From an uncultured Bacteroidales bacterium (GTDB lineage: Bacteria > Bacteroidota > Bacteroidia > Bacteroidales > Dysgonomonadaceae): DNA of 48,569 bases. The stretch is from the NCBI GenBank assembly GCA_964293155.1, contig CAXYYA010000028.1:1-48569 (forward strand). Reading direction: 5' to 3'. Positions 23,913 through 39,664 of this stretch are shown one piece after another (position 1 is the first letter of the stretch; the number at the start of each line of letters is the position of its first letter). Under the pieces are notes generated by a model. That model saw only the letters and a list, made by a program, of their open reading frames with translations, was not told the DNA's origin and searched no databases. The translations under genes were made by a program, and so were the position numbers.

Positions 23913-24743
23913 CTACAAAGGTATTAAGTAAAATGCCGACACGGAAAACCCTGAACTTACTTTATAATCGGCAGCGCTATCTTTCGTAAACGGGAAATTG
24001 AGCGAATATCCAAATTGCAGCTCAAAATTGCCCAAATTTACACTCAAGGGGAGAAACAGCTGGACGTTTAACAAGCCGAATACTTCCTCGGGAGTGGTTG
24101 CAAGGTTTATGGTTTCTTTGGCAAAATAGCCCGAAATTTCAGGGCCGAAATAAAAACGGTTGTTTTTCCCAAAATCTAAAAAATAAAAACCGGCAAAAAC
24201 GCTCGGACTGAGCGTATAGAATGTCTGACTCCCGAAAAGCAAATTGTTGGAGATACGTGCTCCATACCAGTCTTTTCGGTACGAAAGCGTTAAGTTGGCA
24301 TTGTTTTCATAGGGATAAATGGCTGTGGTGTCGGAATTGTAAATGAGACGGCTGTATGAACCGCTGGCTCTGAAGTGCTTGCTTTTATCCAGGTAAAGGC
24401 CGTATCCAAGCGTCAGCATTGTTGTGGTGTAGCCGGGCGAAAGCTGGTCGTACCATATTCCGGATGCTCCTGCAAAGAGTCCGTATTTGCTGAAATAATA
24501 AACGTGACCACTTACATTCGCTAAGTCGGTACCGATTTCTCTGCCTGCAAAGAACGTTTTATTATTGTAATTAAGGCCTGCGTACAAAAAGTCTTTCTTT
24601 TCACTAATTATTTCAGACAATAAAGTTTCATCACTAAATATCAAATCATTTAGTAATGAGTCAATTCTATCGGTTTGAGCGGCGGCTGAAATACCGTATA
24701 GAAGGAACAATATAAAGAATGCTTTTTTCATATGTTTATTCAT
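23913..24743 (-). CDS. Secreted, probably outer-membrane protein of unknown function
   Basis: 276 aa with a signal peptide (FFILFLLYGISAAAQ). The composition is aromatic/Gly-rich and beta-strand-like. Confidence 0.5.
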   Translation of the reverse strand: MNKHMKKAFFILFLLYGISAAAQTDRIDSLLNDLIFSDETLLSEIISEKKDFLYAGLNYNNKTFFAGREIGTDLANVSGHVYYFSKYGLFAGASGIWYDQLSPGYTTTMLTLGYGLYLDKSKHFRASGSYSRLIYNSDTTAIYPYENNANLTLSYRKDWYGARISNNLLFGSQTFYTLSPSVFAGFYFLDFGKNNRFYFGPEISGYFAKETINLATTPEEVFGLLNVQLFLPLSVNLGNFELQFGYSLNFPFTKDSAADYKVSSGFSVSAFYLIPL

Positions 24744-24916
24744 TGATTTTTACATTATGGTCACATAGCTCATTCGAACGTACGAGAGAACACGCGTTTT
24801 AATTAATCCCCTGTTTCAAAATTATTCCGGTATGGCAGTTATTCCAATACCTTTAATAAAAACTTTTGAAAGAGCGTGAGCTCTTTCAAAAGTAATTTAA
24901 TTTTCATAATTAAGGT

Positions 24917-25558
24917 TTATTTGCCGCCACCTTTCATGCCGCCACCTTTTCCACCACCTTCGCCAAGCTGCTGCATTTGTTGCTGCATTTGCTGTTGCTG
25001 GCTGCCGGTAGATATATTCTGGTGTTCTCTGATTTGGTTGCGTTGTTGTTCCTTAACCTGTTCTTTGGTTTGCGTTGCAACTCCTTTGTTCAACCGGTTT
25101 TGATCTCTATACTGCAATTTCAGCATATTGCGTTGTTCTTCCGACAGAGAATTCATAAAGGCTTCTCTTTTTTCAGCTCTGGTCATCGTTTGGTTTTGAA
25201 GCAATTCAATTTGTTCGGGGGTAAGAGAGTTCTTGAATTGTTCGCGATTTCTCTGATTTACCATGCTCTGAATATCAGCATTTACCTGATTCCCTGTTGC
25301 TGAATGTAACCGATCCCGATCCCTCTGTTGCAATTGGTCAGCATCTTCAAGCGGATCGTGAATGCGGTCTCTTGTCTGGTCTTTCAACTGATCTTTCAGT
25401 TGATCTTTAGTTTGATCTTTGGTCTGATCTTTCAATTGATCCTTTTTTTCAATTTTGGTTTGGTCTTTTGCTCTTATAGGTGTGGTTTGAGCAAATGTAT
25501 TTGCGGCTAAAAAAAGAAAAGCTACAAATAAAACTCCGAAGATTGATTTTGTTTTCAT
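24917..25558 (-). CDS. Secreted LTXXQ-motif (Spy/CpxP-like) protein with KDQ[T/L] tetrapeptide repeats and a Gln/Gly-rich tail
   Basis: Signal peptide present. (KDQT/KDQL) x7 repeats. SLTPEQIELLQN...REAFMNSLSEEQRNMLKLQ are LTXXQ-type helices. The C-terminus is QQQQMQQQMQQLGEGGGKGGGMKGGGK. Confidence 0.6.
   Translation of the reverse strand: MKTKSIFGVLFVAFLFLAANTFAQTTPIRAKDQTKIEKKDQLKDQTKDQTKDQLKDQLKDQTRDRIHDPLEDADQLQQRDRDRLHSATGNQVNADIQSMVNQRNREQFKNSLTPEQIELLQNQTMTRAEKREAFMNSLSEEQRNMLKLQYRDQNRLNKGVATQTKEQVKEQQRNQIREHQNISTGSQQQQMQQQMQQLGEGGGKGGGMKGGGK
25368..25450. repeat. 12-bp tandem repeat (TGATCTTTNNNT, about 7 units) inside the LTXXQ gene, encoding KDQT/KDQL
   Basis: Visible directly as CTTTCAACTGATCTTTCAGTTGATCTTTAGTTTGATCTTTGGTCTGATCTTTCAATTGATC. 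Confidence 0.7.
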
Positions 25559-25691
25559 AATTCTTGTTTTTAATAATTAATTCGTTTCCGTTTTGTATAA
25601 GATAACCGAACAAGTCTTGTAATACCCTACTTTTTTATTGAGATTTTTTCAATTAAATACTTTTTTTACTTTGAAAGGCGGTTCCAGCGGT

Positions 25692-26948
25692 TTATCTTGG
25701 AGATTGTTTTCCGCCTTCTCTTCTCATTCCGCCACCTTCTTTTTCAACCGGAGTGTTGGACAACTGGTTTTTACGATTCCGTTGTTCATCTTTCACGTTC
25801 TCTTTTATTCCGTCTTTGTGAACATCTTTGCCGAATTCTATTTCAGTGTTTTGATCCCTGAGCAATTGTCTTTGTTCGTTTGTAAGGGATTTAATGAACG
25901 CTTTCTGTCTTTCAGTTCTGCTCAACGTTTTGTCTTCCAGAATGTCGAGTTGCTTTTGGGTCAGTGAGTTTCTGAATCGGTTTTTAGCCGGTTCCGCATT
26001 ATTGTCTGCTGTTTCCCCCTGGCGATTTTGAAGATTCGTGCGTTCCTGATTTTCGGTTTGCAGTTTTGTCTCCGCTTCGTCTAGTAAGTTTTTAATTTCG
26101 TTTAAATGATTTTCCTTTAGCTCATTCGACAAATTCGGTTCTACTTTTAACGGGGTTGGCTCCTGCAACTGAATTTTCTCCTGACTCATCGTTCTCTGCC
26201 TTTCCGGTTCGGGTTTCATTTCGTCTTTTGGAATGACGGCAGGTTTTTCTTCCGTGATATTCATATCTTTTTCTTCTACGGCTACAGTTACTTCCGGAGT
26301 TACCTCAGTAGGATTGTTGTGATGCTGAGAAATAATTTCGAACTGTTTATCCGCCTTCAGCCTTGCTTTCTGACCGGTCGTTATCACAACTTCGTTTTTT
26401 TCGGCAAACTCCACAAGCATCACTTTTCCATGTTCGCAATTCACCTGGTATTCATTTTCGCGAGCCGTTACCAAAAATCGTGTTCCTAAAACCACCGTTT
26501 TGGCCTTTTCAGAAACAACTTCGAACCTACTTCCGCTTTCCACTTCAAAATAAGCTTCGCCGTTTAGCTTTGTTGTCCGGCTGAACTTCCACAGCAAAGG
26601 TTTGTAGCTCAGCGACGAATTGGCGTGCAACACCACCTTGGAATTGTCCGGCAAAAGAAAACTCTTTTCAGCTATCACGGTTTTCACATTCTTTGTATAT
26701 AATGTTGCTGTAACAGCAAATGAAACCAATAAAGCGATCGAGGCTACTGCCGCGTATTTCAACAGTTGGAAATACCGGACGGGCTGAACTTTCTTCCCGG
26801 TTGGGTTAGCATCCAGTTTTGCTTCCATTTCCATCCAAATATCCTCTTTGGACCTGATCCATTGAGGTCGGGTGTTGGAAATGATATCTTCTACTTCCTT
26901 CGAAAATACGATATTTTCTTTTTCGGAATATGTATGTTTAATAATCAT
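25692..26948 (-). CDS. FecR-family anti-sigma factor with an extra C-terminal LTXXQ (Spy/CpxP-like) periplasmic domain
   Basis: 418 aa. The cytoplasmic N-domain is followed by one TM helix (AAVASIALLVSFAVTA) and a FecR domain (VVLHANSSLSYKP...GEAYFEVE...TRFLV). The C-terminus NSLTQKQLDILEDKTLSRTERQKAFIKSLTNEQRQLLRDQ matches the neighbouring secreted protein. Confidence 0.8.
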   Translation of the reverse strand: MIIKHTYSEKENIVFSKEVEDIISNTRPQWIRSKEDIWMEMEAKLDANPTGKKVQPVRYFQLLKYAAVASIALLVSFAVTATLYTKNVKTVIAEKSFLLPDNSKVVLHANSSLSYKPLLWKFSRTTKLNGEAYFEVESGSRFEVVSEKAKTVVLGTRFLVTARENEYQVNCEHGKVMLVEFAEKNEVVITTGQKARLKADKQFEIISQHHNNPTEVTPEVTVAVEEKDMNITEEKPAVIPKDEMKPEPERQRTMSQEKIQLQEPTPLKVEPNLSNELKENHLNEIKNLLDEAETKLQTENQERTNLQNRQGETADNNAEPAKNRFRNSLTQKQLDILEDKTLSRTERQKAFIKSLTNEQRQLLRDQNTEIEFGKDVHKDGIKENVKDEQRNRKNQLSNTPVEKEGGGMRREGGKQSPR

Positions 26949-26957
26949 AGGGTTTGG

Positions 26958-27440
26958 TTATAATAATGATTTTTTCAAAAATTGTAATGCTGCACTCATT
27001 CGTTTTTCTACAGCTTTCACACTTAAGCCCAGACGTTCGGCAATTTCCCAGTATTTCAAGCCCTCAATCCTCGACATTAGAAATACGGCTCGTTGCTTTT
27101 CGTTCAAACTGTTAAGTGCGATTTTATACTTTTCAAGTAACTCTTTGTGACTCAATGTATCTTCTGTCGAAGGCTCGTTACCGTAATAACGGATCGAAGC
27201 TATATAGTTCATTTCCAATACATCACGTCTATATTTACTAACAAACATGTCACCGGCAATTTTATAGAGGAGACGTTTTGCTGTTGTTTTATCTACCTCG
27301 AATTGTTTCTCCCAAAGCCGCATAAAAACCTCCTGTGCTATGTCTGAAGCATCATCCGGCCCCGCACCTCTATAATACAGGTAACCCCGTACCGAATCGA
27401 AGTAGGTATCGAACAAATATTTAAAATCCTCTTTTGTCAA
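26958..27440 (-). CDS. ECF (sigma-70 family) RNA polymerase sigma factor
   Basis: 160 aa. Region 2 is DIAQEVFMRLWEK and region 4 is KYWEIAERLGLSVKAVEKRMSAAL. It ends 9 bp before the anti-sigma gene start. Confidence 0.85.
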   Translation of the reverse strand: MTKEDFKYLFDTYFDSVRGYLYYRGAGPDDASDIAQEVFMRLWEKQFEVDKTTAKRLLYKIAGDMFVSKYRRDVLEMNYIASIRYYGNEPSTEDTLSHKELLEKYKIALNSLNEKQRAVFLMSRIEGLKYWEIAERLGLSVKAVEKRMSAALQFLKKSLL

Positions 27441-27708: not shown

Positions 27709-28323
27709 TTATTTCACCAAATTCAAACCATCCTTTGCCGATTGATCCGTTGGCGAGATAATGAGAACCGTGTTGAAAAGCCGTTGCGCATCGTTCTTTT
27801 TCCCGAGGAAATATTTTGTCCAGGCGCTCATCAGCGTAGAGTAATAATCGAACGGATACATCTGTTGCACCAAATCGAAATATTTCTCGGCTTCCATAAA
27901 GTTTTTCCGATAATAATAAATGTTTCCCAGCGCGTAATTTACCCGCGAATTCACCTTGTCCAGCAAAAGAATTTTTTTGTAAACCGCTTCCAATTCATCG
28001 GTTTTTTTCTGCGCTTCCAGCGGATAGCACAGGCCGAGCAGCGCTTCAACCGCTTTAGGAGCTATGTCCACCGCTTTTTGGTAAAATTTCTTGCTGCTTT
28101 CGTAATCTTTGGAAAGATAATACAACCAACCCATTCTCAGAAATTTATGATAATCGAATCCATTCAGGCTGTTTAATTCGCTGATGGCTTTCTGGTAATC
28201 GCCTGACGACTCGTACTGATAACTGTTTGCAAAAACCTGCGAAGGATTCACCTGTGCCGATGCGGTAATTAAGCCCGCCGCCAGCAGAAAGGTGAGTACC
28301 GTTTTTTTAATTAAAAGTTCCAT
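27709..28323 (-). CDS. Secreted TPR-repeat protein
   Basis: 204 aa with a signal peptide. The TPR-like repeats are rich in Y, K, A and L. Its start overlaps the upstream gene stop by 13 nt. Confidence 0.65.
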   Translation of the reverse strand: MELLIKKTVLTFLLAAGLITASAQVNPSQVFANSYQYESSGDYQKAISELNSLNGFDYHKFLRMGWLYYLSKDYESSKKFYQKAVDIAPKAVEALLGLCYPLEAQKKTDELEAVYKKILLLDKVNSRVNYALGNIYYYRKNFMEAEKYFDLVQQMYPFDYYSTLMSAWTKYFLGKKNDAQRLFNTVLIISPTDQSAKDGLNLVK

Positions 28324-29696
28324 TGTAACGCGAGATTTAAAAGATGATTATTATATTTGTATGTTGTGTAATTGGTTGACGAATAGGCGTATCCTTCCCT
28401 TTGTTGCCATTGATATCCGGCCGATAACATGGTTTTTTTGATAAAATAGGAGAGGGAAGCACCCGCAAGGGCTTTAACGGGATCGTACGTGTCGTAAACT
28501 AAAAATGAGTGCCCGGTAATGTAATTTTGATGATTCCCGATGCTGAACGCCCCATCCAGCCACAGCGATTTGGCTAATTTTACACCCAAATTTTGAGAAA
28601 AAACAACTTGTGTGCCTGTCCAGGCGTTTTGGTTGTAGATGGCTGCAAGAGCGGTTGTTCCGTAAAAATCGAGGTTTCCCAGCGGATAATAAGTGAGCGA
28701 TCCTTTTGCCTGATACTGATGTCCGCCGCCGAAATTGGAATAAGCCACGGCAATTTCGGGCAAGGTGTACGCAGAGCGTTTGTTAAGAAATGCCAGCATG
28801 GAGAAAGCCGAAATCGTGTTTCCGGTTGATGCGGTGTAATATATGGAAGGATAATAAAAACCGCCTCCGCCAGGGCCCCCGCCTCCTCCACCCGGGCCGT
28901 ATCCGCCGGCACGCGTTCCCATAGTGGCAGATGCAACAGCGGTCGTAGTGTACGGGATCGCTTTATCAATCTTTTCGATGTTGTAATACGCGCCGGCAAA
29001 TCCCCAGGTAACGTTATTATCCGAGAAAAAATCAAATCCGGCGATCAATTGATGTTGAGACAATCTCTCTTCTTTTACCAATCCCGTGCTGTTTGACCGC
29101 TGAAACTTGGTGTTATACAGTTGATATCCGAGTTTTAGCTTGGCCTTGTCGGAGAGTTTAAACCCAACGCCCAGCGTAGTGAATACCATATCCTGAAACT
29201 GGTTCAGCGAATCGTAGCCCATAAAATTTGAACGCAGATCGGGTTTGTTGTCGTTCGTAAGATAACCGCCTGAGAGCGCAATAAAATCCATCGCCGAAGG
29301 CGAATATCCGATAGCGGCCTGCGTGTGTGGCGCGAGCGATTTGGCAAGTATATCGGCATTGTTTTTCTGGCCGCTCAGCAGGTAGGCGTAATACAGGCTT
29401 TCCAACAGAGCCGGCTCGGTGGAAGTTTCTGCAAGCGTTTTTTTGTAAAATTCCGCCGCTTTGGCATAATTTTTCAGTTCATAATAAGCAATAGCGGTGC
29501 GGTAATTCAGATAATAAAAATCAATGTTTTGCGCCTGCGCCTGTTTGCTGGTCTCAATCAGATTTTTATAATCCTTTTGCAGGTATTGCTGATAGGTAAT
29601 GCTGTCAATGCGGGTTGCTTCCGGGCTTTGTTGCGCCTGTAGCGCAAACGTCCACATCATCATTACCGTTGCGAATGTTATACCCATTCGATACAT
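28311..29696 (-). CDS. Outer-membrane protein with an N-terminal TPR-like region and a C-terminal beta-barrel-like domain with a Gly-rich loop
   Basis: 461 aa with a signal peptide. TPR-like helices are followed by a GGYGPGGGGGGPGGGG tract. The strand pattern alternates aromatic/hydrophobic residues and the protein ends NLALQWNF (terminal Phe). Confidence 0.5.
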   Translation of the reverse strand: MYRMGITFATVMMMWTFALQAQQSPEATRIDSITYQQYLQKDYKNLIETSKQAQAQNIDFYYLNYRTAIAYYELKNYAKAAEFYKKTLAETSTEPALLESLYYAYLLSGQKNNADILAKSLAPHTQAAIGYSPSAMDFIALSGGYLTNDNKPDLRSNFMGYDSLNQFQDMVFTTLGVGFKLSDKAKLKLGYQLYNTKFQRSNSTGLVKEERLSQHQLIAGFDFFSDNNVTWGFAGAYYNIEKIDKAIPYTTTAVASATMGTRAGGYGPGGGGGGPGGGGFYYPSIYYTASTGNTISAFSMLAFLNKRSAYTLPEIAVAYSNFGGGHQYQAKGSLTYYPLGNLDFYGTTALAAIYNQNAWTGTQVVFSQNLGVKLAKSLWLDGAFSIGNHQNYITGHSFLVYDTYDPVKALAGASLSYFIKKTMLSAGYQWQQREGYAYSSTNYTTYKYNNHLLNLALQWNF

Positions 29697-31870
29697 AAGA
29701 CATGTTTTTTAGTGTTAATTTCCATTCTGTTTTTTATTACCGTGATAGTTGATTCTTTCACCGGCATTTTTATATTGAACGACTTAGCGTCTATAATGCT
29801 TTGATATACAATTTTTTCAGGATAAAAAATATGATCCGATTCCGTTAATTGCGAACGGTAATTTATGGTTGTGAAAATAACAAAAGGCGCCAAAAAATCC
29901 TGAAACCAACGCGTTCCGAAGGGGTGTTCCTTGGTAAGCGGTATTTTATCGGTAACGGAGATCTCTTTTTCGTTGGACAGCAATAATTTAAAGCAACTAC
30001 GGTAAAACAAATACAACGGCGATGATTTTCTTCCTTCAAAATCGGTAAAATAGAACATGGTGCCATCGTTTTCCACGTACGCCACGGCTTTCGATTTTTC
30101 GCAACGGATGTAGGTTTTGTTGTATTCGTCGGTAGCAATTGTCCAGGGATAATTTTCGTTGTCGTAGGTAACTTTCAGCAACCGGCCCGGTTTGCCTTCG
30201 AAAGCATCTTGCGCCAGCAACGAAGGAACTACGTTGAAGATCGTAGTATCCTGTTTCGGAACCTCGCCGATGTGCAAGAGCGGCTTACCGGCTGTTTTTT
30301 CAAAGAAATAACCCATGGGGTACGCATGTGTTGCCGACCCGATTTCGGGCGACAACTGCACCTGAAAATGAAGGTGCGGCTCCGGCGAACGTCCCGAATT
30401 GCCGCATGCGGCAAGTACGGTTCCTTTTGTTACATAATCGCCGGTTCGCACGTTAAAACTGTCTTTTTTAAGGTGGCTTAGCTGCGAGTATAACCCGTTC
30501 AAATGATTGATAATGATCGTATTTCCCCAATTCTTTTTCGTGTTTACATCATTTATTTCATTGTCTTCGGTAATGTTGCTGATCATGTACACATAACCGT
30601 CGGCCGGAGCCAACACCGGTTTGTTGTAACAGTAAAAATCTTCTTTCTGCGCACACCGGCCGAAACACGTTTTTCCTTCTTCGTCCGTGATCATAAAATC
30701 CAACGCTTTTCCCCATGCGCCCAGGTGGGTTATTGTACCGTTGTAGCCCTGCGTTACACGCCATTCTCCCAAAAAAGGCAATTGCATTTTAAACAGCATG
30801 TTTTGTGCGAAACGCTGCATGTAATTCACGTTTTTATATACCGTTTTCTCGGGATTATAATATTGAATATACGGAAAAATAAAGAACCGGCTAAAGCTGC
30901 GTTGTTTGAGAATGAACAGTACGAGAATGGATAAAAGACTGAATGATAATGTGTAAGAAGACAGCCCGGTATCCGATATCAAACTCTCCACGCTGGCATA
31001 AAACAGAAACAGGGCGGGCGTGAGGCCAATGACCAGTATGTAGCTGTAGATGTTGGGGATGATAAAGAAGCTTCCGATTGCCATTCCCCAGAAAATGTAG
31101 TTAACGCCAGCCAGATCCTGCGTGAGTTCTGCGATATCCACGCCAAGCAATTTACTGATGATAAATGCAAAGAAAAATCCAAAAAATGCTACCGTGGATT
31201 TGATGCGTGAGTGAAAAAGCAATGCAACGGCTATGATGATGCCGACTAACACGCTGTCGGTAAAGAAAATGGATGCCAATGTTTTAAAATAATAAAACAA
31301 CATGGGCGGCAAGTGCGCATTATCGAGTGAGTGGACGAAAGTGTACCACGGTACTTTCATTTGCCCGGCCAACACGATGGTGAAACGGTCGAACGGAATA
31401 ATGTACTCAATGTTCGTGAACGATTTTACCGAAAGATCAACGATGAACAACGTGAAAACAAACGGCAGAGTAAGCACGGGAATATCGTGCTTCGCAAAAA
31501 CCGATTCGAGCCATACCGTGAACATGAATACCAGAATAACCGATAAAACAAAAAGAATAATGAACGAGCCGTTCACGTAAAATTTGTAAACCAGACTCAA
31601 CCCGACAAAAACGGCGTTAAATCCGTACAATCCGCTCTTGATCCTTTTCTTCGAAAATCCGAGCCCGTGCGCGATGATGTTCGTCAGAACCACAGCCGAA
31701 AGTCCGCCCAATCCCAGCCGGATGTCCAGCATGCTAAGCACCAGCAAGATGATCGCTAACCACCTGCTTTGCGAGAAAAATATCATGGCATAGCTGTTCA
31801 GCGTGCCATCGAGATACATCAACGCGTATGATTTGAGACTTTGTTTCATTTGTTTATGATTTCGGGACAA
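29678..31870 (-). CDS. Polytopic membrane protein (urea-transporter-like duplicated domain) fused to a C-terminal M23/LytM zinc metallopeptidase domain
   Basis: 730 aa. The first ~330 aa hold about 10 TM segments with internally repeated GLYGFNAVFVG / LAGVNYIFWG and LTLPF motifs. The M23 motifs are HLGAWGKALD ... GNSGRSPEPHLHFQV. The stop overlaps the downstream gene start by 19 nt. Confidence 0.7.
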   Translation of the reverse strand: MSRNHKQMKQSLKSYALMYLDGTLNSYAMIFFSQSRWLAIILLVLSMLDIRLGLGGLSAVVLTNIIAHGLGFSKKRIKSGLYGFNAVFVGLSLVYKFYVNGSFIILFVLSVILVFMFTVWLESVFAKHDIPVLTLPFVFTLFIVDLSVKSFTNIEYIIPFDRFTIVLAGQMKVPWYTFVHSLDNAHLPPMLFYYFKTLASIFFTDSVLVGIIIAVALLFHSRIKSTVAFFGFFFAFIISKLLGVDIAELTQDLAGVNYIFWGMAIGSFFIIPNIYSYILVIGLTPALFLFYASVESLISDTGLSSYTLSFSLLSILVLFILKQRSFSRFFIFPYIQYYNPEKTVYKNVNYMQRFAQNMLFKMQLPFLGEWRVTQGYNGTITHLGAWGKALDFMITDEEGKTCFGRCAQKEDFYCYNKPVLAPADGYVYMISNITEDNEINDVNTKKNWGNTIIINHLNGLYSQLSHLKKDSFNVRTGDYVTKGTVLAACGNSGRSPEPHLHFQVQLSPEIGSATHAYPMGYFFEKTAGKPLLHIGEVPKQDTTIFNVVPSLLAQDAFEGKPGRLLKVTYDNENYPWTIATDEYNKTYIRCEKSKAVAYVENDGTMFYFTDFEGRKSSPLYLFYRSCFKLLLSNEKEISVTDKIPLTKEHPFGTRWFQDFLAPFVIFTTINYRSQLTESDHIFYPEKIVYQSIIDAKSFNIKMPVKESTITVIKNRMEINTKKHVLCIEWV

Positions 31871-31949: not shown

Positions 31950-33305
31950 TCAAAGTTTAAACCCTTTCAGATGTTCCGGTGTAACCTCCTGTTGTACAAT
32001 GGATTCCACGGTTTCGCTTTTGCGAATAAGATGCACTTTCCCCGTGGTATCAATCATGACCACATTGGGACGTAGCGTAATGAATTGCATCCATTGTGTC
32101 ATGTTGTAAGCGCCCACTTCGTGCACCACCACGCGGTCGTCCTTTTTTAACAGCGGTAAGCTAACGCTTTCGCGCAGGCAGTCAATGTTCATGCAAAGCG
32201 GCCCGTACAGCGCCATTTCTTCGGCATGCTGTGTGAAATCCTGCGCTGGCGATACTTTGTGATTGTACCAAAACGATGTGAACATGATATTTACCCCGAT
32301 ATCGAGCACGGTAGCCCGACGGCCGTTGGCCAGGCGTTTGGTTGCAAGCACGGAACCGAGCAGATAACCCGCTTCGTCAATCAATGCGCGTCCGGTTTCG
32401 AGGATCAGCAAGGGCAATTCATCGGGTTTAAAGCCGAATTGCAAAATGGTTCCGGTGATGGCTTCGGCATAATCGTCGAACGTAGGAATAACATCAGCAC
32501 CTTGCAGATACGAACCTTTGAGTGTGTTGGACGAACAGAATCCGCCACCCATATCAATGTATTTTATCTTTACGCCGGTTTTGTTTGCCGTATTTTGCGC
32601 CAGTTCGCACAGTTTGCGCGCCGCAACGGCATAAGCGTTGGCGGTGAGCATGTAGGTGCCGATGTGGGTGTGTAATCCTTCCAACTGAAGGTTTGGCTGC
32701 GTAATGATCTTCATGATCGCATTCCACGCCTGCCCGCTTTCGTAGTTGAAGCCGAACCTGTCCCACTGCGGATAAACGCCGGTGTCCATATTTACGCGAA
32801 TGGCAACACGCGCTTTTTGTGAAGTTCCTTCCAAAATCTCGATAAGCGAATAGAGCTCGTCGAAATGATCAATGTGGATGAGCGAACGGTTTTCCACGGC
32901 TATTTTCAGGTCATCGGCCGATTTATCAGGGCCGTTGAAAATGATCAGATTGCCCGGAACGCCGTTGCGAAGGGCTTTTTGGTATTCAAAACCCGATACG
33001 ACTTCCGCCCAGCTTCCTTCCTGATGGAAAACGTTGCAAACGGCATCCAGATAGTTGGTTTTGTAGCTCCAGGCGAATTGCACTTTCGGATAGCGCATTT
33101 TAAAGGCTTTTTGTGCTTTTTGATAGGTTTGGCGGATGGTTTTTTCGCTGATTACGAAGAGCGGCGAGCCGTATTCATCCATTAACCCGGCAACTGCCAC
33201 GCCATCAATTTGTTTCACAGGTATGTATTCGGTTCTGCTGCCGAATTTATTCATCAGGTTTGTGTTCAGTTTCTGAATCACAGGACGTTCGTAGGTTGGT
33301 TTCAT
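31950..33305 (-). CDS. Fold-type III PLP-dependent decarboxylase (Orn/DAP/Arg decarboxylase family)
   Basis: 451 aa. The PLP lysine motif is AWSYKTN, the glycine motif is DMGGGF, and beta/alpha-barrel plus C-terminal beta-domain features are present. Confidence 0.8.
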   Translation of the reverse strand: MKPTYERPVIQKLNTNLMNKFGSRTEYIPVKQIDGVAVAGLMDEYGSPLFVISEKTIRQTYQKAQKAFKMRYPKVQFAWSYKTNYLDAVCNVFHQEGSWAEVVSGFEYQKALRNGVPGNLIIFNGPDKSADDLKIAVENRSLIHIDHFDELYSLIEILEGTSQKARVAIRVNMDTGVYPQWDRFGFNYESGQAWNAIMKIITQPNLQLEGLHTHIGTYMLTANAYAVAARKLCELAQNTANKTGVKIKYIDMGGGFCSSNTLKGSYLQGADVIPTFDDYAEAITGTILQFGFKPDELPLLILETGRALIDEAGYLLGSVLATKRLANGRRATVLDIGVNIMFTSFWYNHKVSPAQDFTQHAEEMALYGPLCMNIDCLRESVSLPLLKKDDRVVVHEVGAYNMTQWMQFITLRPNVVMIDTTGKVHLIRKSETVESIVQQEVTPEHLKGFKL

Positions 33306-33391: not shown

Positions 33392-34447
33392 TTATCGAGC
33401 ATATTCCCCTGTTGTGGAAATCTGCTGAAATTCCGATATATCCACGATCATATCGTACGCGTAGCGGATAAATATTTTGCCGCTTTCGTACTCCGTGAAT
33501 GGTAGTACATCCTCGCTCAACGCCATTTTCACCAAAGCTTCGGCGTGATTTTGGCCGCAGCCGATAGCAAGGTACATCCAGGCGGGAAAACGGGGATTCA
33601 TTTCCAGCAGATAATATTCGTCTTTTTTTGTTTTGATAAACTCCAGTTCGCAACCGCCTTTCCATCGGCTGTTCTCAATTACGCGACGAGAAATCTCCAT
33701 GAGTTTATCGTCTTCCAACGAAACGCCCGACCATGCTTTTCCCTTGTCCGTGATGTACAATTTTCGCATCGGCACCGCGCCGATGCATCGGCCTTTTCCG
33801 TCGCCGATGGCGGTAACGTTTACTTCCGTTCCGGTTACAAACTCCTGGACGATAATGGGATATCCCCATTTGGCGACGATTTTGTAAAAATAAGAGCTGG
33901 CCTGCTCGTAGTTCGAAGCAATGTAGGCATCGTAGTATCGCCCTTTGATCACCATGGGATAATCGAGGTCATCTTCCAGTTTTTTAATTTCCGAAACCTG
34001 ATTAATGATATGGCTTTCCGGTACTTTTATATCGTATTTTTCGCCGAATTTATTCAGTTCCGATTTGTGGCGCTCTTCAAATTGCTCATGCGATGGCAGG
34101 AAAGTGGCTATCCCAAGCTCCGATTTTAATTCGTGTTGAATTTTGATGAAATTGTGCAATTCGGCATCAAAATTCGGGATGAGCACGTCAATTTTTTCCT
34201 GGCTCACGATGTATTGCAGCCGCTCTTTGAGCATGGCTGAGCCCGCGGTGGGCAAAGGCAGCTGATAGACTTTGTCCACCAATTCGTGCATATAAATTCC
34301 CGGTTCCAGCGTTTCGTACGATAAGCCGACAATGCGCACATCGAACGCCGAACTGTCTTTCAATGCACGAATAACGGGAATTCCCGGCCCGGGGCTGTCA
34401 ATGTTGTTGAGCCCAGTGACCGCTACGGTAATTTTTCGCTTATTCAT
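33392..34447 (-). CDS. ATP-grasp family carboxylate-amine ligase
   Basis: 351 aa. The ATP-grasp core (KGRYYDAYIA, IIVQEFVTGTEVNVTAIGDG, CELEFIKTKKDEYYLLEMNPRF) is present. The start overlaps the PqqD-like gene by 8 nt. Confidence 0.75.
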   Translation of the reverse strand: MNKRKITVAVTGLNNIDSPGPGIPVIRALKDSSAFDVRIVGLSYETLEPGIYMHELVDKVYQLPLPTAGSAMLKERLQYIVSQEKIDVLIPNFDAELHNFIKIQHELKSELGIATFLPSHEQFEERHKSELNKFGEKYDIKVPESHIINQVSEIKKLEDDLDYPMVIKGRYYDAYIASNYEQASSYFYKIVAKWGYPIIVQEFVTGTEVNVTAIGDGKGRCIGAVPMRKLYITDKGKAWSGVSLEDDKLMEISRRVIENSRWKGGCELEFIKTKKDEYYLLEMNPRFPAWMYLAIGCGQNHAEALVKMALSEDVLPFTEYESGKIFIRYAYDMIVDISEFQQISTTGEYAR

Positions 34448-34685
34448 TTTCGGATAGTTGGTAGCTTTTTAACATATCCAGAAAATCGTTGAGGTCTTTC
34501 TCGGCCGTGTGGGCATCGAGTTCGTATTCATCCTGAAGTGCTTTCAAAACGGTTTCGTTACTTTCACCGTTTTTTAATTGTTGAAGAACGAAAACGCCGG
34601 TTTGGTTTACACTGAAACTGTCGCCTGTAAGTGGATTAAAGATAAATCCGTTTTCGCTGATGGCTATGTTTTTTCTAATGTTCAT
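34440..34685 (-). CDS. PqqD-family protein (RiPP recognition element-like peptide chaperone)
   Basis: 81 aa. FNPLTGDSFSVNQTGVFVLQQLKNGESNETVLKALQDEYELDAHTAEKDLNDFLDMLKSYQL matches the PqqD/RRE winged-helix pattern. Confidence 0.7.
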   Translation of the reverse strand: MNIRKNIAISENGFIFNPLTGDSFSVNQTGVFVLQQLKNGESNETVLKALQDEYELDAHTAEKDLNDFLDMLKSYQLSENE

Positions 34686-34719: not shown

Positions 34720-35328
34720 TTACGGTTGTACGATATCGGAGAACTGTGACAAATTTAATACTTTTGGTTGATAATCAATGCCTCTGCGCGATAAATTTCG
34801 TACAAACGCCCGCAAATGGTTCTCCGAAGCGCGCAAGAGGTTGGAATAAATCCGTTGGATATCGGGATTGTCGGTTTTCTGCAAGTGCGATTGCAGGTCT
34901 TCGATATCCTGTTCTTCGATCAACGCTCCGGCTTGCAGCGCCTCGATGAGCGTTGTGCCTTTGGTGAGCTCGGTGTACATTTTCTGTAACTCACGATTGG
35001 TAAACACGCCTTCCGCTTTCGCGAGGTCTTTTAACCCATACGTATCCACAAGCCACATCATGGCGTTCTGGTGCACCGTTTCGCTACGCGAAATATTTCG
35101 GAAGATAGGGATGCTATACTGCCGGGCGTAAAACGTATAAACGTCGTGGGCAAGTTTTTCTTCTTCGCGCATGTACTCAATGCTTTGGATGTCGGCCTTC
35201 GTCAGATTTTGCGTTGAAGCCGGTATTCCCATCGTCTTATTCTGTGTGGTTTTAGCCCCATCGGCAGCTTGGGGCAACAAAAGTATTGCCCCTGCCGCGA
35301 TCAGAATGAATAAATATTTTGTTTTCAT
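34720..35328 (-). CDS. Exported DUF2202-like (ferritin-like superfamily) protein, paralog 1
   Basis: 202 aa with a signal peptide. YMREEEKLAHDVY...SETVHQNAM...LRASENHLRAF is a ferritin-like four-helix pattern of E/H ligands. Confidence 0.6.
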   Translation of the reverse strand: MKTKYLFILIAAGAILLLPQAADGAKTTQNKTMGIPASTQNLTKADIQSIEYMREEEKLAHDVYTFYARQYSIPIFRNISRSETVHQNAMMWLVDTYGLKDLAKAEGVFTNRELQKMYTELTKGTTLIEALQAGALIEEQDIEDLQSHLQKTDNPDIQRIYSNLLRASENHLRAFVRNLSRRGIDYQPKVLNLSQFSDIVQP

Positions 35329-35332
35329 TTTT

Positions 35333-36025
35333 TTATGTGTTTATGATAGCGTTGAAATCATCGTTGCTCAATAATTGAGGTTGATATGCAATACCGTTGA
35401 ATTTGAGATTTGCGACAAAGGCTTTCAAATGAAACTGTGAAGCACGGAGTAGATTACCGTAAATTCTTTTGATAAACGGGTTTTCTGTTTCGGCTATTTC
35501 TCTTTGAAGATCAATAATATCGTGTTCTTCGATAAAAGCGCCGGCTTTGTAAGCATCTACAACTGTAAGGGCTTCGGTTGTAAGCTTTGTGTATAAATTT
35601 TGCAATTCTTCGATGTTAAATACCCCCGGTACCGTTTCGGCGGGAGTCTCAATTTTGTAGAGATTAATAAGCCAGGCGATAGCTTTTCCGTGTGCTATCT
35701 CGCTTTTGGAGATGTTGCTGAACACGGGTCTGGCGAATTTTTCGTTAAAATACACATACACATTATTGGCTAATTTTTCTTCTTCGCGCATGTACAGGAT
35801 GCTGTTTATTTCACTTTCGGTGAGTGGCGCGAGTTGCGTATTTGTCAACAAACAAAGCGAATCGGTGGTTGCAGCCAGTGTTGCATCAAGTCGCGTAGTT
35901 GAAACTGCGTTTATCAATGCGGCTTGTTCGGCATTTTCTTCCGGTGAATTTACGCTGTTCGCTTCACAACCGAAAAGCAAAATTGCAAGAAATGCCACGA
36001 CGGAAATTTTTTGATAAGTTTTCAT
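35333..36025 (-). CDS. Exported DUF2202-like (ferritin-like) lipoprotein, paralog 2
   Basis: 230 aa with a lipoprotein signal (LLFGCE). YMREEEKLANNVY...SEIAHGKAI...LRASQFHLKAF parallels the neighbour. It lies 4 bp upstream of paralog 1. Confidence 0.6.
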   Translation of the reverse strand: MKTYQKISVVAFLAILLFGCEANSVNSPEENAEQAALINAVSTTRLDATLAATTDSLCLLTNTQLAPLTESEINSILYMREEEKLANNVYVYFNEKFARPVFSNISKSEIAHGKAIAWLINLYKIETPAETVPGVFNIEELQNLYTKLTTEALTVVDAYKAGAFIEEHDIIDLQREIAETENPFIKRIYGNLLRASQFHLKAFVANLKFNGIAYQPQLLSNDDFNAIINT

Positions 36026-36123: not shown

Positions 36124-36687
36124 TTATTTTGTGGTTTCCCTACGGTCGCAAATACCGTTTTTATTGGCGTCCACAAAATTTACCGCACTGCCTTTTCCAT
36201 TCCGAAGGCCGGTGCCTTTCCCTGTACCGCGTCCCTGGCGCGGTGTTCCGTTTTCGAAGTTGTCACAAATGCCGTCTTTGTCGGCATCTACGAAATTTGC
36301 TCCACCACCTCTGCCGTTACGCAGTCCGTTGCCATAGCCTTGTCCGCGTCCTCCACGGGGAGTTCCGTTTTCGAAATTGTCGCACACGCCATCTTTATCG
36401 GCATCCACAAAGAAGCGTCCTTGTCCTCTGCCGTTGCGTAATCCCTGGCCTTTGCCTTGTCCGCGGCCGCTACCGTCGAGCAGTCGTTGTTTGCCGTTGG
36501 CATTCGGATTTCCGGGTGTTCCGTTCTCGAAATTATCGCAAACGCCGTTGTTGTTTTTGTCCACAAATGCAGGTCCGGTTTGAGCGGTTTTCGCCGTTTC
36601 CTTTGCTGCCTGATTTTGATTTTGGGCGGTTGCTAATCCTATGGTGGCAACCAGCGCCATTGCAGTGATAAATACTTTTGTTTTCAT
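36124..36687 (-). CDS. Secreted protein with four canonical EF-hand calcium-binding loops separated by Gly/Arg-rich linkers
   Basis: 187 aa with a signal peptide. There are four repeats FVD(A/K)(D/N)K(D/N)G(V/I)CDNFENGTP, and each matches the EF-loop D-x-D-x-D-G-x-x-D-x-x-E and contains one Cys. The linkers are GRGQGKGQGLRNGRGQG. Confidence 0.6.
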   Translation of the reverse strand: MKTKVFITAMALVATIGLATAQNQNQAAKETAKTAQTGPAFVDKNNNGVCDNFENGTPGNPNANGKQRLLDGSGRGQGKGQGLRNGRGQGRFFVDADKDGVCDNFENGTPRGGRGQGYGNGLRNGRGGGANFVDADKDGICDNFENGTPRQGRGTGKGTGLRNGKGSAVNFVDANKNGICDRRETTK

Positions 36688-36717
36688 AATAATCTTATTT
36701 TTAATTGTTTATTTAAT

Positions 36718-37293
36718 TTATCTGGTTTCGTTCCAATCGCGTCCGTAGCGATGCCGGTATCCGCGTCCCATACCGAGACTGTCGGTTCGGTTATATCCGT
36801 ATCCGTACCCGCGACGGGCATTCACCGTTTCATCGCGATACAACGGTAGGAATGCTCTTTCTAATTGAGCGCACTGCGCGTCGTTGCACGCCGATTTTAT
36901 CTTCAGGTAGAAATCGTTTGTAAGCTTTTTCAGTTCTGCGTGATGATTTCCGATGTGATCCGATAACGCATTTAATTTTGTTTCGTCGGGTTTCGGTTTG
37001 TTCAACTCCATGAACATTTCGTTTTTCAGCGAATCCATTTCGTAAATCAGCAGGTTGGCACGGGGTTGAAATTCCCGGTTCGCTGCGCGAAAAACATCCA
37101 TCTGATCATTGTCGAATCCCAGCCTTTGCCGAAAATACCTTCCGGTGAGCGGGGGCTGGCCTTCGTCAATAACAATTGCTGTGTTATCGTCTTTTTCCTG
37201 CTGATTGTGATAGACGATAGTTCCGATGGTTGTCAGGTTCAGCACCACAAGCAGTGCAATTACCCACATCATTATTTTATTCGTCTTATTCAT
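36718..37293 (-). CDS. Membrane-anchored periplasmic Spy/CpxP/ZraP-like protein (periplasmic heavy-metal sensor family)
   Basis: 191 aa. An N-terminal TM anchor is followed by a helical domain (QMDVFRAANREFQ...HHAELKKLTNDFYLKI) and a Tyr/Gly/Arg-rich tail. It overlaps the upstream gene by 8 nt. Confidence 0.5.
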   Translation of the reverse strand: MNKTNKIMMWVIALLVVLNLTTIGTIVYHNQQEKDDNTAIVIDEGQPPLTGRYFRQRLGFDNDQMDVFRAANREFQPRANLLIYEMDSLKNEMFMELNKPKPDETKLNALSDHIGNHHAELKKLTNDFYLKIKSACNDAQCAQLERAFLPLYRDETVNARRGYGYGYNRTDSLGMGRGYRHRYGRDWNETR

Positions 37294-37579
37294 AATCGTC
37301 GAAATTATAATAGCCTAAATTCTCGATCTGACTGTCGTTTATGTTCATCGTAAACTCGTGAGAAACGCTTTTCTGGTAACTGTTACCGATGCTTACGCCT
37401 AAAAATGCAACGGCAGCAAGGCTGGCAGCCACAACCACAGTTTGCCAAACGGGCGTTCTGCGACGCTCCGGTTGTTGCCTTTTTTCGATTTCGGCCATCA
37501 CCCGCGTACTCAGGAACGGATTATGTTCCGTTTGCTTTTCGCGTTTGATGAAATCGTCTATGTACTGTTCCGTTTTCAT
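37286..37579 (-). CDS. Small single-pass membrane protein, putative anti-sigma factor
   Basis: 97 aa. A cytoplasmic N-terminus is followed by one TM helix (VWQTVVVAASLAAVAFLGVSI). It lies immediately downstream of an ECF sigma gene (36-bp gap). Confidence 0.4.
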   Translation of the reverse strand: MKTEQYIDDFIKREKQTEHNPFLSTRVMAEIEKRQQPERRRTPVWQTVVVAASLAAVAFLGVSIGNSYQKSVSHEFTMNINDSQIENLGYYNFDDYE

Positions 37580-37615
37580 TTTTTGTTCGTTTTATAGGTT
37601 AGACATTTGTATTGA

Positions 37616-38161
37616 TTATTTCCTACGGTCATATTCTAATTTTTTTTGCAGAGTGCTTTTTGCACGTTGTAAAAGTTGTTCCACAGCGCCTTCCGATTTT
37701 TTCATGACGGCGGCAATTTCTTTCTGCGGTAATTCTTCGTATTTACTCAGGATGAAAGCTGTTCGTTGCGAATCGGGCAGGGAATTGATGGCGTTTTTTA
37801 TCCGCTTGTCCCGTTCCGATTGTTCCAATCGTTCCAACGGCGTCTTTTCCTCACTCTGTTTGTGAAAGATGTTTTCCAACGATTCCACCACGCGGTTCTT
37901 CTTTTTTCGATTCACAAAATTGATACTCGCGTTTACGGTAATCCGGTACAGCCATGTAACAAATTGGGCTTCGCCCTTGAAATCGGGCAACGATTGATAT
38001 ATTTTAATGAAAACTTCCTGCGTGATATCTTCCGCATCTGCTTTGGAGTGCACAAAACCCAACGTCGTTCGGAACACCATACCCTGGTATTTCTCCATAA
38101 GTTCTTTAAAGACAATGGTGTTACCTGAAATTATTTCTTGTATGAGTTGCTCGTCCGACAT
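37616..38161 (-). CDS. ECF (sigma-70 family) RNA polymerase sigma factor
   Basis: 181 aa. Region 2 is DITQEVFIKIYQ and region 4 is LPQKEIAAVMKKSEGAVEQLLQRA. Confidence 0.85.
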   Translation of the reverse strand: MSDEQLIQEIISGNTIVFKELMEKYQGMVFRTTLGFVHSKADAEDITQEVFIKIYQSLPDFKGEAQFVTWLYRITVNASINFVNRKKKNRVVESLENIFHKQSEEKTPLERLEQSERDKRIKNAINSLPDSQRTAFILSKYEELPQKEIAAVMKKSEGAVEQLLQRAKSTLQKKLEYDRRK

Positions 38162-38392: not shown

Positions 38393-39664
38393 ATGAAAAC
38401 GAATTTTTTTATTTTTGGCATAATATCCCTTATGCTTGTATCCTGTTATCAGGAATATCCTGCACATTTTAGGCAGTATATTGATGTGAATGCTTCCATT
38501 GATGGGCTGAAAACCCGCGCCACAAATGCCTCATGGGAAGCGAATGATGCCATCGGAATTTATATGAAAATCAGTGGAGAGGGTTTGTCTGTACCAGCTT
38601 TGGCTGAAAATTCGAAATATATTACCGACGGAACGTCCGCTTTTCAGTCTGCTACGGCCGATGGAGCTATCAGCTTTCCGCTCGACGGCACTGATGTGGA
38701 TTTCATCGCGTATTATCCACATCAAACAACAATCACGGACTTAACGTATCCGGTAAATGTTTCCGATCAAAGCAGCCTGCCGGCTATTGACTTGTTGTAT
38801 TCAAACAATGCCGCGGGGCTAAATTCTCAAAATCCGGATGTTGGGCTGACTTTCGTTCACCAATTATCGAAGATAAACGTGCTAATTATGCCCGAAGATG
38901 CAACGTCTGATTTAAGCGGTTTAACCGTAACGATGACCGGTGTGGGAACCTCCGCAACATTTTCATTAGCCGACGGAACGCTTTCGGCGCCCGCTATCAC
39001 GGGTAATGTCGCATTCAATATGAGTTCCGACGGACGCACTGCTCAGGCTATTCTATTGCCGATGGCCGATTTCACGGGTAAATCGCTTATTATCGCTTTT
39101 GGATCCAATTCTTACGAATTCCCGTTGACTCAAGGGGTAAATATCACTTCTTTCGAAAAAGCAACGCAATACACGTATAACGTTACGCTTTCATCGCAAG
39201 CACTGTCGGTTTCCAACGCAACCATCACCGATTGGGTTACCGGCCCGTCGGAAAATGTGATCATCGGAAGCGTCGGAACGGCGCCTGTAACCGGCGGAAC
39301 ACTCGATGATCCGTTTACTATTGAGGAGGCAATTGCCAATCAGGGGTTGATGGATAGATGGGTAAGAGGGTTTATTGTGGGTTACTATAAAACGACTTCC
39401 TATAAATCATTTACCACAAGTGTAGATGATGTGACGAGCACCACCAACATTGCTTTAGCAACAGTTAGCACAGAGACCGATTCAACCAAAACGTTTCCTG
39501 TACAATTGTCTGCTACCCAAATCAGAGATACACTCAATCTGCTGGATCATCCTGAAAATTTGGGCAGAGAAGTTCTGGTACGAGGAGATTTGGCAACTTA
39601 TCAATACATTGCCGGAATGAAGGCGGCTGATGGAGCAGTAATTAACGGAGATACCATTCCCTAA
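38393..39664 (+). CDS. Cell-surface lipoprotein, fimbrillin-like (FimA/Mfa-type N-domain)
   Basis: Lipoprotein signal MKTNFFIFGIISLMLVSC. The Thr/Ser-rich beta architecture resembles Bacteroidales fimbrillin-family proteins. The track ORF begins at a GTG at 38321, and the Met at 38393 is preferred. Confidence 0.45.
   Translation: MKTNFFIFGIISLMLVSCYQEYPAHFRQYIDVNASIDGLKTRATNASWEANDAIGIYMKISGEGLSVPALAENSKYITDGTSAFQSATADGAISFPLDGTDVDFIAYYPHQTTITDLTYPVNVSDQSSLPAIDLLYSNNAAGLNSQNPDVGLTFVHQLSKINVLIMPEDATSDLSGLTVTMTGVGTSATFSLADGTLSAPAITGNVAFNMSSDGRTAQAILLPMADFTGKSLIIAFGSNSYEFPLTQGVNITSFEKATQYTYNVTLSSQALSVSNATITDWVTGPSENVIIGSVGTAPVTGGTLDDPFTIEEAIANQGLMDRWVRGFIVGYYKTTSYKSFTTSVDDVTSTTNIALATVSTETDSTKTFPVQLSATQIRDTLNLLDHPENLGREVLVRGDLATYQYIAGMKAADGAVINGDTIP

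Follow-up and report, generated by a model that had tools for sequence, protein, structure and literature searches.

The window analysed in this work is a stretch of 48,569 nucleotides (nt) from an uncultured Bacteroidales bacterium of the Dysgonomonadaceae (assembly GCA_964293155.1, contig CAXYYA010000028.1, positions 1 to 48,569). On its reverse strand, three overlapping genes encode a protein in which a membrane domain of the urea-transporter (UT) fold is joined to an M23 peptidase domain (UT-M23), an outer-membrane (OM) protein combining TPR helices with a beta-barrel, and a secreted TPR protein. Together these genes make up the core, conserved in Bacteroidota-type bacteria, of a cell-envelope module that is still uncharacterised. 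In the window this triplet comes last in a cluster of six genes, which begins with those for a PqqD-like protein, an ATP-grasp ligase and a pyridoxal phosphate (PLP) decarboxylase. The six genes, with protein lengths in amino acids (aa), are:

34440..34685 (-), PqqD-like protein of 81 aa, first gene of the cluster (Pfam PqqD, E=1.1e-12, 48.6 bits)
33392..34447 (-), ATP-grasp ligase of 351 aa, cytoplasmic (Pfam ATPgrasp_Ter, CPSase_L_D2 and ATP-grasp_3)
31950..33305 (-), fold-III PLP decarboxylase of 451 aa, Orn/DAP/Arg family (Pfam Orn_Arg_deC_N and Orn_DAP_Arg_deC)
29678-31870 (-), UT-M23 fusion, an open reading frame (ORF) of 730 aa from a TTG codon
28311-29696 (-), OM protein of 461 aa
27709-28323 (-), secreted TPR protein of 204 aa (Pfam TPR_2, E=1.6e-15; signal peptide ending ...ITASA/Q)

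The gene cluster and its conservation

A first-pass annotation of this DNA had described the triplet as a three-gene overlapping operon, with overlaps of 19 nt between UT-M23 and the OM protein and of 13 nt between the OM protein and the TPR protein. Both overlaps agree with the ORF coordinates and, as detailed below, synteny is maintained, although the operon is not self-contained, the genes for the PqqD-like protein, the ATP-grasp ligase and the decarboxylase preceding it on the same strand. The first two of these overlap by 8 nt, and two gaps of about 85-100 nt follow. For UT-M23 the ATG at 31849 is a more likely start than the TTG, because homologs measure 720-735 aa; it would give a protein of 723 aa, and residue numbers refer to this form. 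Signal peptides could be read in the sequences of the OM protein and the TPR protein, the latter being confirmed as a secreted protein with strong TPR matches, and none was seen by eye in the three enzymes. Neither Rfam families nor tRNA genes were detected in the whole window (0 matches in each case).

A scan of GTDB species representatives yielded 175 loci encoding the module, 80 of which were used for the conservation counts. Nearly all carry labels of Bacteroidota lineages, and the few others look like mislabelled bins. By tblastn, none of the 80 loci lacks UT-M23, while 76 have the OM protein and 73 have the TPR protein, and the missing cases fall on short or truncated contigs; the TPR protein adjoins the OM protein in 73 of the 80, in either order. 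The triplet is thus firmly syntenic (73-76/80 loci) in several named orders and families of Bacteroidota, and a Kapaibacterium genome has it too. The homolog clusters listed for the fusion family number more than 100, with database annotations of either 'urea transporter' or 'M23 peptidase'.

Two gene orders, termed type A and type B, were distinguished among the examined loci with upstream sequence. In type A, to which the window belongs, the stop/start overlaps are kept: considering ORFs from the first ATG, they are mostly 13-19 nt between UT-M23 and the OM protein and 13 nt between the OM protein and the TPR protein. The genes for PqqD, ATP-grasp and PLP decarboxylase lie directly upstream of the triplet in the same order in 20/20 clustered type-A loci and in Kapaibacterium; bins labelled Bacteroidales, Flavobacteriales/Flavobacteriia and Chitinophagales are represented among the type-A loci. 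In all type-A loci the PqqD gene is adjacent to or overlaps that of the ATP-grasp ligase, a coupling of a PqqD-like domain to a maturase gene as in PqqD/RRE-dependent peptide maturation pathways.

The three enzymes could not be assigned to curated subfamilies with the NCBIfam cut-offs: the PqqD-like protein scores below those of all PqqD subfamilies, the ATP-grasp ligase below every one, and the decarboxylase below those of lysA and FslC. A sequence search of the PDB gave a single match for the ligase (2pn1, E=3e-4). Among solved structures, the decarboxylase is closest to FslC, an N-citrylornithine decarboxylase (7kh2, E=1e-54), with diaminopimelate (DAP) decarboxylases and BtrK next. Between Bacteroidales and the Flavobacteriales/Chitinophagales lineages, the ligase and the decarboxylase share 67-72% identity (up to 88% for the ligase), compared with 43-47% for UT-M23. 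None of the six cluster proteins (0/6) matched in a PADLOC scan for anti-phage defence.

In type-B loci (n=26) the order is UT-M23, TPR protein and barrel protein, and most of them have a divergent operon upstream, with genes for a 145-aa protein (25/26 loci), a decarboxylase (24/26) and an ATP-grasp enzyme (21/26). This decarboxylase is a 911-aa fold-I Orn/Lys/Arg enzyme, non-homologous to the type-A one, and the 495-aa ATP-grasp protein belongs to NF005096 (1e-217). A neighbour-joining tree of UT-M23 shows type B as a single clade nested within type A; since type A is paraphyletic, it is probably the ancestral arrangement. The 145-aa protein was considered as an analogue of PqqD and discarded, the hhalign probability being 0.4% and its fold, by eye, that of the VOC/glyoxalase group. 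As a separate observation, this VOC-like protein (e.g. L037, 9049-9486, minus strand) has no Pfam or NCBIfam match and is ~90% identical by eye among six sequences from bins labelled Sphingobacteriaceae, Sediminibacterium, Sphingobacteriia and Bacteroidia; such strong conservation in a protein lacking a family match is unusual.

When metagenomes were scanned with the type-B ligase, only its closest relatives (at least 69% identity) were found to adjoin UT-M23. More distant ones share an operon with genes for a class-III aminotransferase, a CN-hydrolase, a C45 hydrolase and an aldehyde dehydrogenase, to which an amino-acid permease is sometimes added. A seven-gene operon present in loci L098-L162 (e.g. 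L099, 4505-13826) encodes a class-III aminotransferase, a CN-hydrolase and a VOC-like protein of 138 aa, then a fold-I Orn/Lys/Arg decarboxylase of the 911-aa type, an NF005096 ATP-grasp enzyme, a C45 hydrolase and an aldehyde dehydrogenase. Its gene content suggests an uncharacterised pathway that degrades a basic amino acid via an acylated diamine and resembles, by analogy, the Puu acylated-diamine route. The analogy would support a chemistry in which the product of the decarboxylase is joined by the ligase into an amide.

Domain architecture of the three proteins

The domains recognised in UT-M23 and in the OM protein are the following:

30890..31849 (-), UT-fold channel domain (UT-M23 residues 1-320)
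30305..30787 (-), M23/LytM-type zinc peptidase domain, predicted cytoplasmic (UT-M23 residues about 355-515)
29681..30292 (-), family-specific beta-rich C-terminal domain (UT-M23 residues 520-723)
29307..29636 (-), periplasmic TPR domain of the OM protein (residues about 21-130, about 3 repeats)
28311..29291 (-), OM beta-barrel (residues 136-461), probably of 14 strands, ending in Phe

The resemblance of the membrane domain to urea transporters proposed in the first-pass annotation was borne out by comparison with the Pfam UT model (PF03253), which matches residues 21-321 with E=1.4e-44 and 152.9 bits (gathering score 25) and is covered end to end, from position 2 to 291 of its 292. The AlphaFold2 (AF2) model of UT-M23, built with 70 homologs, has a mean pLDDT of 85.8 and a pTM of 0.74. 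The internal duplication that had been noted is real, because the two halves align with each other in hhalign (E=4e-4 across 113 columns), and it is the normal UT inverted repeat of two homologous halves. LYGFN at position 74 pairs with LAGVN at 246, as claimed; the second 'LTLPF' motif is degenerate, the partner of LTLPF(126) being YTLSF(299). Half 1 retains the pore motifs GFN (F77) and IPVLTLPF, a version of LPxxTxPF, and half 2 has LxSYTLSF, where T/S and F are kept and both prolines of LPxxTxPF are gone. Where dvUT has the Phe of its second pore helix (the GFN Phe), the aligned half-2 residue in the family is V, S, A, T or L, and at the pore entrance the aligned Glu is replaced by S, T or A and the half-1 Gln is variable. 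In view of the functional roles of the aligned dvUT pore residues, the divergence of the half-2 pore would fit a channel retuned away from urea. In addition, UT-M23 scores 98.5 bits against the NCBIfam urea-transporter equivalog TIGR03441, below its cut-off of 274.6.

The loop between the two halves (residues 142-181, about 31307-31426 in the window) is predicted to be periplasmic and contains an extra short helix, with D176 invariant in 70 sequences and H173 nearly so. This loop may be where the TPR partners dock.

Following the UT domain, the M23 and C-terminal domains are quite probably located in the cytoplasm, a placement that we derive from UT topology, the basic tail after the last transmembrane (TM) helix, the lack of a later helix and the cytosolic type of UT fusions elsewhere. 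In UT proteins both termini are cytoplasmic, as established for SLC14, and the alignment of the family profile with human UT-A runs past the last helix into its juxtamembrane C-terminal segment. Beyond the UT domain, neither the UT-M23 model nor the 70-sequence alignment shows a further hydrophobic helix. In the same alignment, the 43 residues after the last TM helix contain on average 5.8 K+R versus 1.8 D+E, and the 40-residue inter-half loop is acidic, with 1.7 K+R versus 4.0 D+E. EF-hand and ankyrin modules are typically cytosolic. Both have been described as other C-terminal fusion partners of UT domains (PMC12998343). The link between an inner-membrane channel and peptidoglycan hydrolysis suggested in the first-pass annotation requires a periplasmic M23 domain; UT topology and the positive-inside rule predict the cytoplasm, which would make peptidoglycan hydrolysis doubtful.

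The peptidase domain matches Pfam Peptidase_M23 (E=1.5e-16, residues 416-505) and has the M23 fold. Six residues, H375, D384, H449, H459, H492 and H494, are invariant in the 70 homologs, and H492xH494 and the catalytic His of the YxHL motif, H459, are in register with Pgp3, lysostaphin and Csd1. Of the canonical M23 motifs reported earlier, the C-terminal catalytic ones stand, as does GNSGRSPEPHLHF, found at residue 483. The canonical HxxxD, the N-terminal zinc-ligand motif of M23 peptidases, is absent from its expected position in the domain, where an invariant T-H375-LGAWGKAL-D384 (Hx8D) is found instead, with a short helical insert within Hx8D and an insert of about 20 residues after D384; the sole literal HxxxD, HLKKD at 459, is the 'YxHL' catalytic-His motif. 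The C-terminal domain (520-723) has no credible match in Pfam. A search of 1.84 billion representative proteins gave 245 relatives of it, and those listed were either proteins of about 720-750 aa matched at their C-terminal end or shorter ones. Ten of the shorter ones were inspected, and all of them are fragments of ~720-750-aa fusions.

The AF2 model of the OM protein (pLDDT 84.9) agrees with the TPR helices and the Phe-terminated barrel that had been described, showing a signal peptide, helices at 25-129 (~3 TPRs) and a barrel from 136 to 460 ending ...LALQWNF. The Gly-rich GGYGPGGGGGGPGGGG loop, also pointed out in the first-pass annotation, is indeed present and lies inside a disordered loop (247-291, pLDDT<50), in a region with no majority consensus residue in a 48-sequence alignment. 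Being disordered in the model and not conserved, it was dismissed as a functional feature. The OM protein matches none of the OM-channel families in Pfam or NCBIfam. Structural comparison of the barrel gave scores of 18.1 with Omp33, 17.5-17.8 with BAM-associated barrels of Porphyromonas and Bacteroides, 17.5 with OmpG and 16.7 with PorV. FadL, TodX, CymA, OmpG and PorV are 14-stranded barrels, and the modelled barrel of the OM protein is probably 14-stranded as well.

Flanking genes

A group of genes upstream of the cluster in the window could include its regulators:

37616-38161 (-), ECF sigma factor (Pfam)
37286-37579 (-), putative anti-sigma factor of 97 aa
36718-37293 (-), Metal_resist-domain protein (Pfam)
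36124-36687 (-), secreted repeat protein of 187 aa, with an N-terminus weakly matching DUF6520

Homologs of the sigma factor, the Metal_resist protein and the repeat protein are found ahead of PqqD in 13-15/80 loci, in Bacteroidales only, and a short putative anti-sigma factor is found between the sigma factor and the Metal_resist protein in clustered loci. This block (36124..38161) may hold regulators lying outside the core. Several type-A loci from outside the Bacteroidales carry a histidine kinase and a LytTR regulator in place of the ECF block. Scans for sigma-70-type promoters and terminators around the cluster gave results at chance level, and no site with the Bacteroidota-type -33/-7 pattern was found inside or directly upstream of it.

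The repeat protein, homologs of which lie between the ECF sigma module and PqqD in 15/80 loci, contains four FVD-x4-G-[VI]-CD-[NR]-[FR]-E repeats, the first three continuing with NGTP. These resemble calcium-binding DxDxDG motifs and are connected by Gly/Arg/Gln-rich linkers such as GRGQGKGQGLRNGRGQGR. Between this gene and PqqD, and 35 nt from the latter, two tandem paralogs encode secreted DUF2202 (ferritin/rubrerythrin-like) proteins (34720-36025, minus strand). The pair is probably a local insertion into the cluster, since homologs are present in only 4/80 loci. A gene for a FemAB-family protein (39661-40782, minus strand, E=1.3e-42), outside the conserved cluster, adjoins that of a TonB-dependent receptor; the FemAB family is best known for its role in Gram-positive peptidoglycan cross-bridges.

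Downstream of the triplet, the region 23913-27440 (minus strand) encodes a FecI-like ECF sigma factor and a FecR-domain protein with a long K/E/Q-rich C-terminal half and a Gly-rich tail at its end. It further encodes a secreted low-complexity protein of 213 aa, which has repeats of a KDQ(T/L) unit as well as a GGGKGGGMKGGGK tail, and one of 276 aa that bears a signal peptide and matches no family. In the Kapaibacterium genome (GCA_046328995.1; L081, 6696-9740, plus strand), a gene 20 nt upstream of PqqD encodes a secreted protein of 1014 aa composed of three near-identical modules, each with M23 and an unassigned domain, and having a C-terminus that by eye resembles a type-9 secretion tail.

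Possible roles of the module and comparison with known systems

The reading that we favour, with a probability of roughly 35%, is that the module constitutes a conduit across both membranes for a small amide or amine made by the ligase and the decarboxylase, with M23 acting as a cytoplasmic processing hydrolase. The UT-fold channel would sit in the inner membrane, with the M23 and beta-rich domains hanging on its cytoplasmic side; the TPR protein would be in the periplasm and the OM barrel would bear its own periplasmic TPR arm, bringing the three proteins into contact. The PqqD-like chaperone, the ATP-grasp ligase and the FslC/BtrK-like decarboxylase would produce, in the cytoplasm, an amide-linked, decarboxylated amino-acid derivative, possibly on a peptide carrier: the ligase would build the amide and the decarboxylase would strip the alpha-carboxylate from the conjugated amino acid. 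M23, at the cytoplasmic mouth of the channel, would then cut a peptide or amide bond, releasing or trimming the product, which would pass to the periplasm via the modified UT pore and cross the OM via the two TPR elements and the barrel. A more elaborate form, in which the UT fold has been recruited as an inner-membrane exporter of a metabolite possibly held on a PqqD-bound scaffold, with release by M23, handover by TPR and exit through a dedicated barrel, seems to us rather doubtful.

Several considerations weigh against a conduit. The topology of M23 on which it depends is derived from sequence, we know of no precedent for a cytoplasmic M23, and the periplasm is where M23 domains and small domains resembling beta-barrels typically occur, all the partner proteins being extracytoplasmic. 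A UT pore is very narrow, and small solutes do not normally require an OM channel of their own. The results are compatible with export as well as with import, and no product, substrate or precursor peptide was identified; the flanks of 20 clusters (the window and 19 type-A loci), covered over 500 nt upstream and 450 nt downstream, gave no conserved ORF of 12-70 aa, although a precursor could be encoded elsewhere. Two loci, L029 and L015, carry the triplet and no such enzymes within 5-10 kb. Finally, the association seen in type B corresponds to one monophyletic clade and may be inherited synteny. As the metagenome scan showed that the type-B enzyme trio occurs mostly without the triplet elsewhere, our view of type B as independent convergence was downgraded to 'suggestive'.

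If the M23 and C-terminal domains were periplasmic instead, UT-M23 could be an inner-membrane-anchored peptidoglycan endopeptidase within a wall-spanning TPR/barrel assembly that remodels peptidoglycan or threads through it, the UT domain serving as anchor, sensor or channel. Every characterised M23 relative that was found acts outside the cytoplasm, as a cell-wall enzyme or as a regulator of such enzymes, the M23 catalytic residues are conserved, both partner proteins have signal peptides, the C-terminal domain resembles small beta-barrels, which are commoner outside the cytoplasm, and the secreted triple-M23 protein is encoded directly upstream of the Kapaibacterium cluster. Such a model, however, needs an inverted or otherwise odd UT topology, at variance with a Pfam UT match spanning 2-291 of 292 and no extra helix, with a strongly basic post-TM tail opposite an acidic inter-half loop, and with the cytosolic type of other C-terminal UT fusions; it also gives no reason for the tight linkage to a cytoplasmic ligase and decarboxylase, and we regard it as rather unlikely. 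A specific version of the conduit would be a pathway similar to those of PQQ or mycofactocin: PqqD presents a ribosomal peptide whose gene lies elsewhere, a residue or an added amino acid is modified by the ATP-grasp ligase and the decarboxylase, and the product, once excised by M23, leaves via the UT channel and the OM barrel. The PqqD match and the coupling of its gene to that of the ligase (8 nt of overlap in the window, adjacent or overlapping in all type-A loci) speak for it, as do the fusion of a peptidase to the presumed exporter and the activity of BtrK-like decarboxylases on carrier-bound amino acids. We nevertheless find it unlikely, given that the 20 clusters are not flanked by a conserved small ORF, that PqqD is below every curated NCBIfam subfamily cut-off and that type-B loci have no detectable PqqD, their 145-aa neighbour being dissimilar by hhalign.

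The same parts could also work in the opposite direction, the barrel and TPR elements capturing an external nutrient, a small amide or a peptide-like compound, that UT admits, M23 cleaves, and the decarboxylase and ligase process. UT channels are bidirectional, the 14-stranded barrels FadL, CymA and OmpG are uptake channels, and wider relatives of the type-B enzyme trio are in a catabolic-looking operon. Uptake is still quite unlikely in our opinion: an ATP-consuming ligase would be odd in catabolism unless it provided Puu-like acyl protection, no amidase, transaminase or dehydrogenase is found next to the triplet in either cluster type, and TPR-armed OM barrels are known mainly from export systems. 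As for an ordinary urea transporter with an accessory peptidase domain, devoted to nitrogen acquisition, it would be consistent with the source annotations ('urea transporter') and with a Pfam UT score well above gathering, but the equivalog score is far from its cut-off (98.5 versus 274.6 bits), the half-2 pore positions have diverged, and neither the annotated neighbours in this window nor the families conserved at related loci include a urease or allophanate-pathway family. Nor would this model explain why coupling to an OM barrel, to TPR proteins and to a ligase and a decarboxylase has been conserved. We consider it the least plausible of the possibilities, and a very improbable one.

Bacteroidota are major bacteria of gut, soil and aquatic environments, and the module is present in at least 175 GTDB species-representative loci. 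The tight link with a ligase and a decarboxylase points to a widely distributed, uncharacterised metabolite. Were the conduit reading correct, its M23 domain would be the first one working inside the cell, and a cytoplasmic peptidase would change the view of what M23 domains do; likewise, a UT fold conducting non-urea cargo in export would widen the repertoire of a medically studied channel family. It should also be noted that the database annotation 'urea transporter' is probably misleading when the nitrogen cycle is inferred from metagenomic data.

The earlier statement that no system of such composition has been described holds: no published description of the cluster was found in the literature, where only the combination of UT and M23 domains, which co-occur in bacteria, has been noted (PMC12998343). 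The composition belongs to no described kind of system and we infer its function, but its parts can be compared with known ones. With respect to the UT/SLC14 transporters (dvUT, UT-B, UT-A), the present protein adds ~400 residues, comprising M23 and a novel domain, and differs in its degenerate second-half pore motifs and sub-cut-off equivalog score; instead of a urease context, it has an OM barrel and a TPR protein as constant partners. UT channels are normally trimeric. The M23/LytM peptidases (lysostaphin, LytM, MepM/ShyA, Csd1-3/Pgp3, EnvC/NlpD) have HxxxD where this domain has Hx8D, and this one is predicted to be cytoplasmic, tethered to a channel and accompanied by a private C-terminal beta domain.

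With regard to biosynthesis, an amide-forming ligase together with a fold-III PLP decarboxylase is also found in the FslA/FslC (Francisella rhizoferrin) and BtrJ/BtrK (butirosin) routes. BtrJ is itself an ATP-grasp enzyme, and FslC and BtrK decarboxylate already-conjugated amino acids (N-citrylornithine and a Glu-S-carrier, respectively). The cluster differs from these routes in having a PqqD-like protein instead of an NIS synthetase or a carrier protein, and the export or uptake partners are unrelated. The coupling of a processing hydrolase to export has an analogy in the PCAT ABC transporters, with their C39 domain, and in ClbP with ClbM (colibactin); there is no homology to them, the present system having a passive-channel fold without ATPase or antiporter and an M23 domain as hydrolase.

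The barrel geometry of the OM protein agrees with that of the FadL/OmpG/CymA-like 14-stranded OM channels, although FadL and CymA have an N-terminal hatch or plug where the OM protein has a TPR domain. A periplasmic TPR region fused N-terminally to an OM barrel is shared with PgaA, BcsC and PelB. The OM protein has neither the 16-stranded barrel of these three nor a sequence match to them, and Pfam and NCBIfam scans of the window and of the conserved neighbours gave no glycosyltransferase family that would indicate a polysaccharide synthase. It thus resembles the TPR-barrel exporters in layout and is not a member of the family by barrel, sequence or gene context. PgaA, BcsC, PelB and AlgK with AlgE are exopolymer export proteins that combine an OM barrel with a periplasmic TPR arm, either fused or as a separate partner, and are encoded beside an inner-membrane component; the presence here of one fused TPR domain and one free TPR protein recalls both the AlgK/AlgE arrangement and PgaA.

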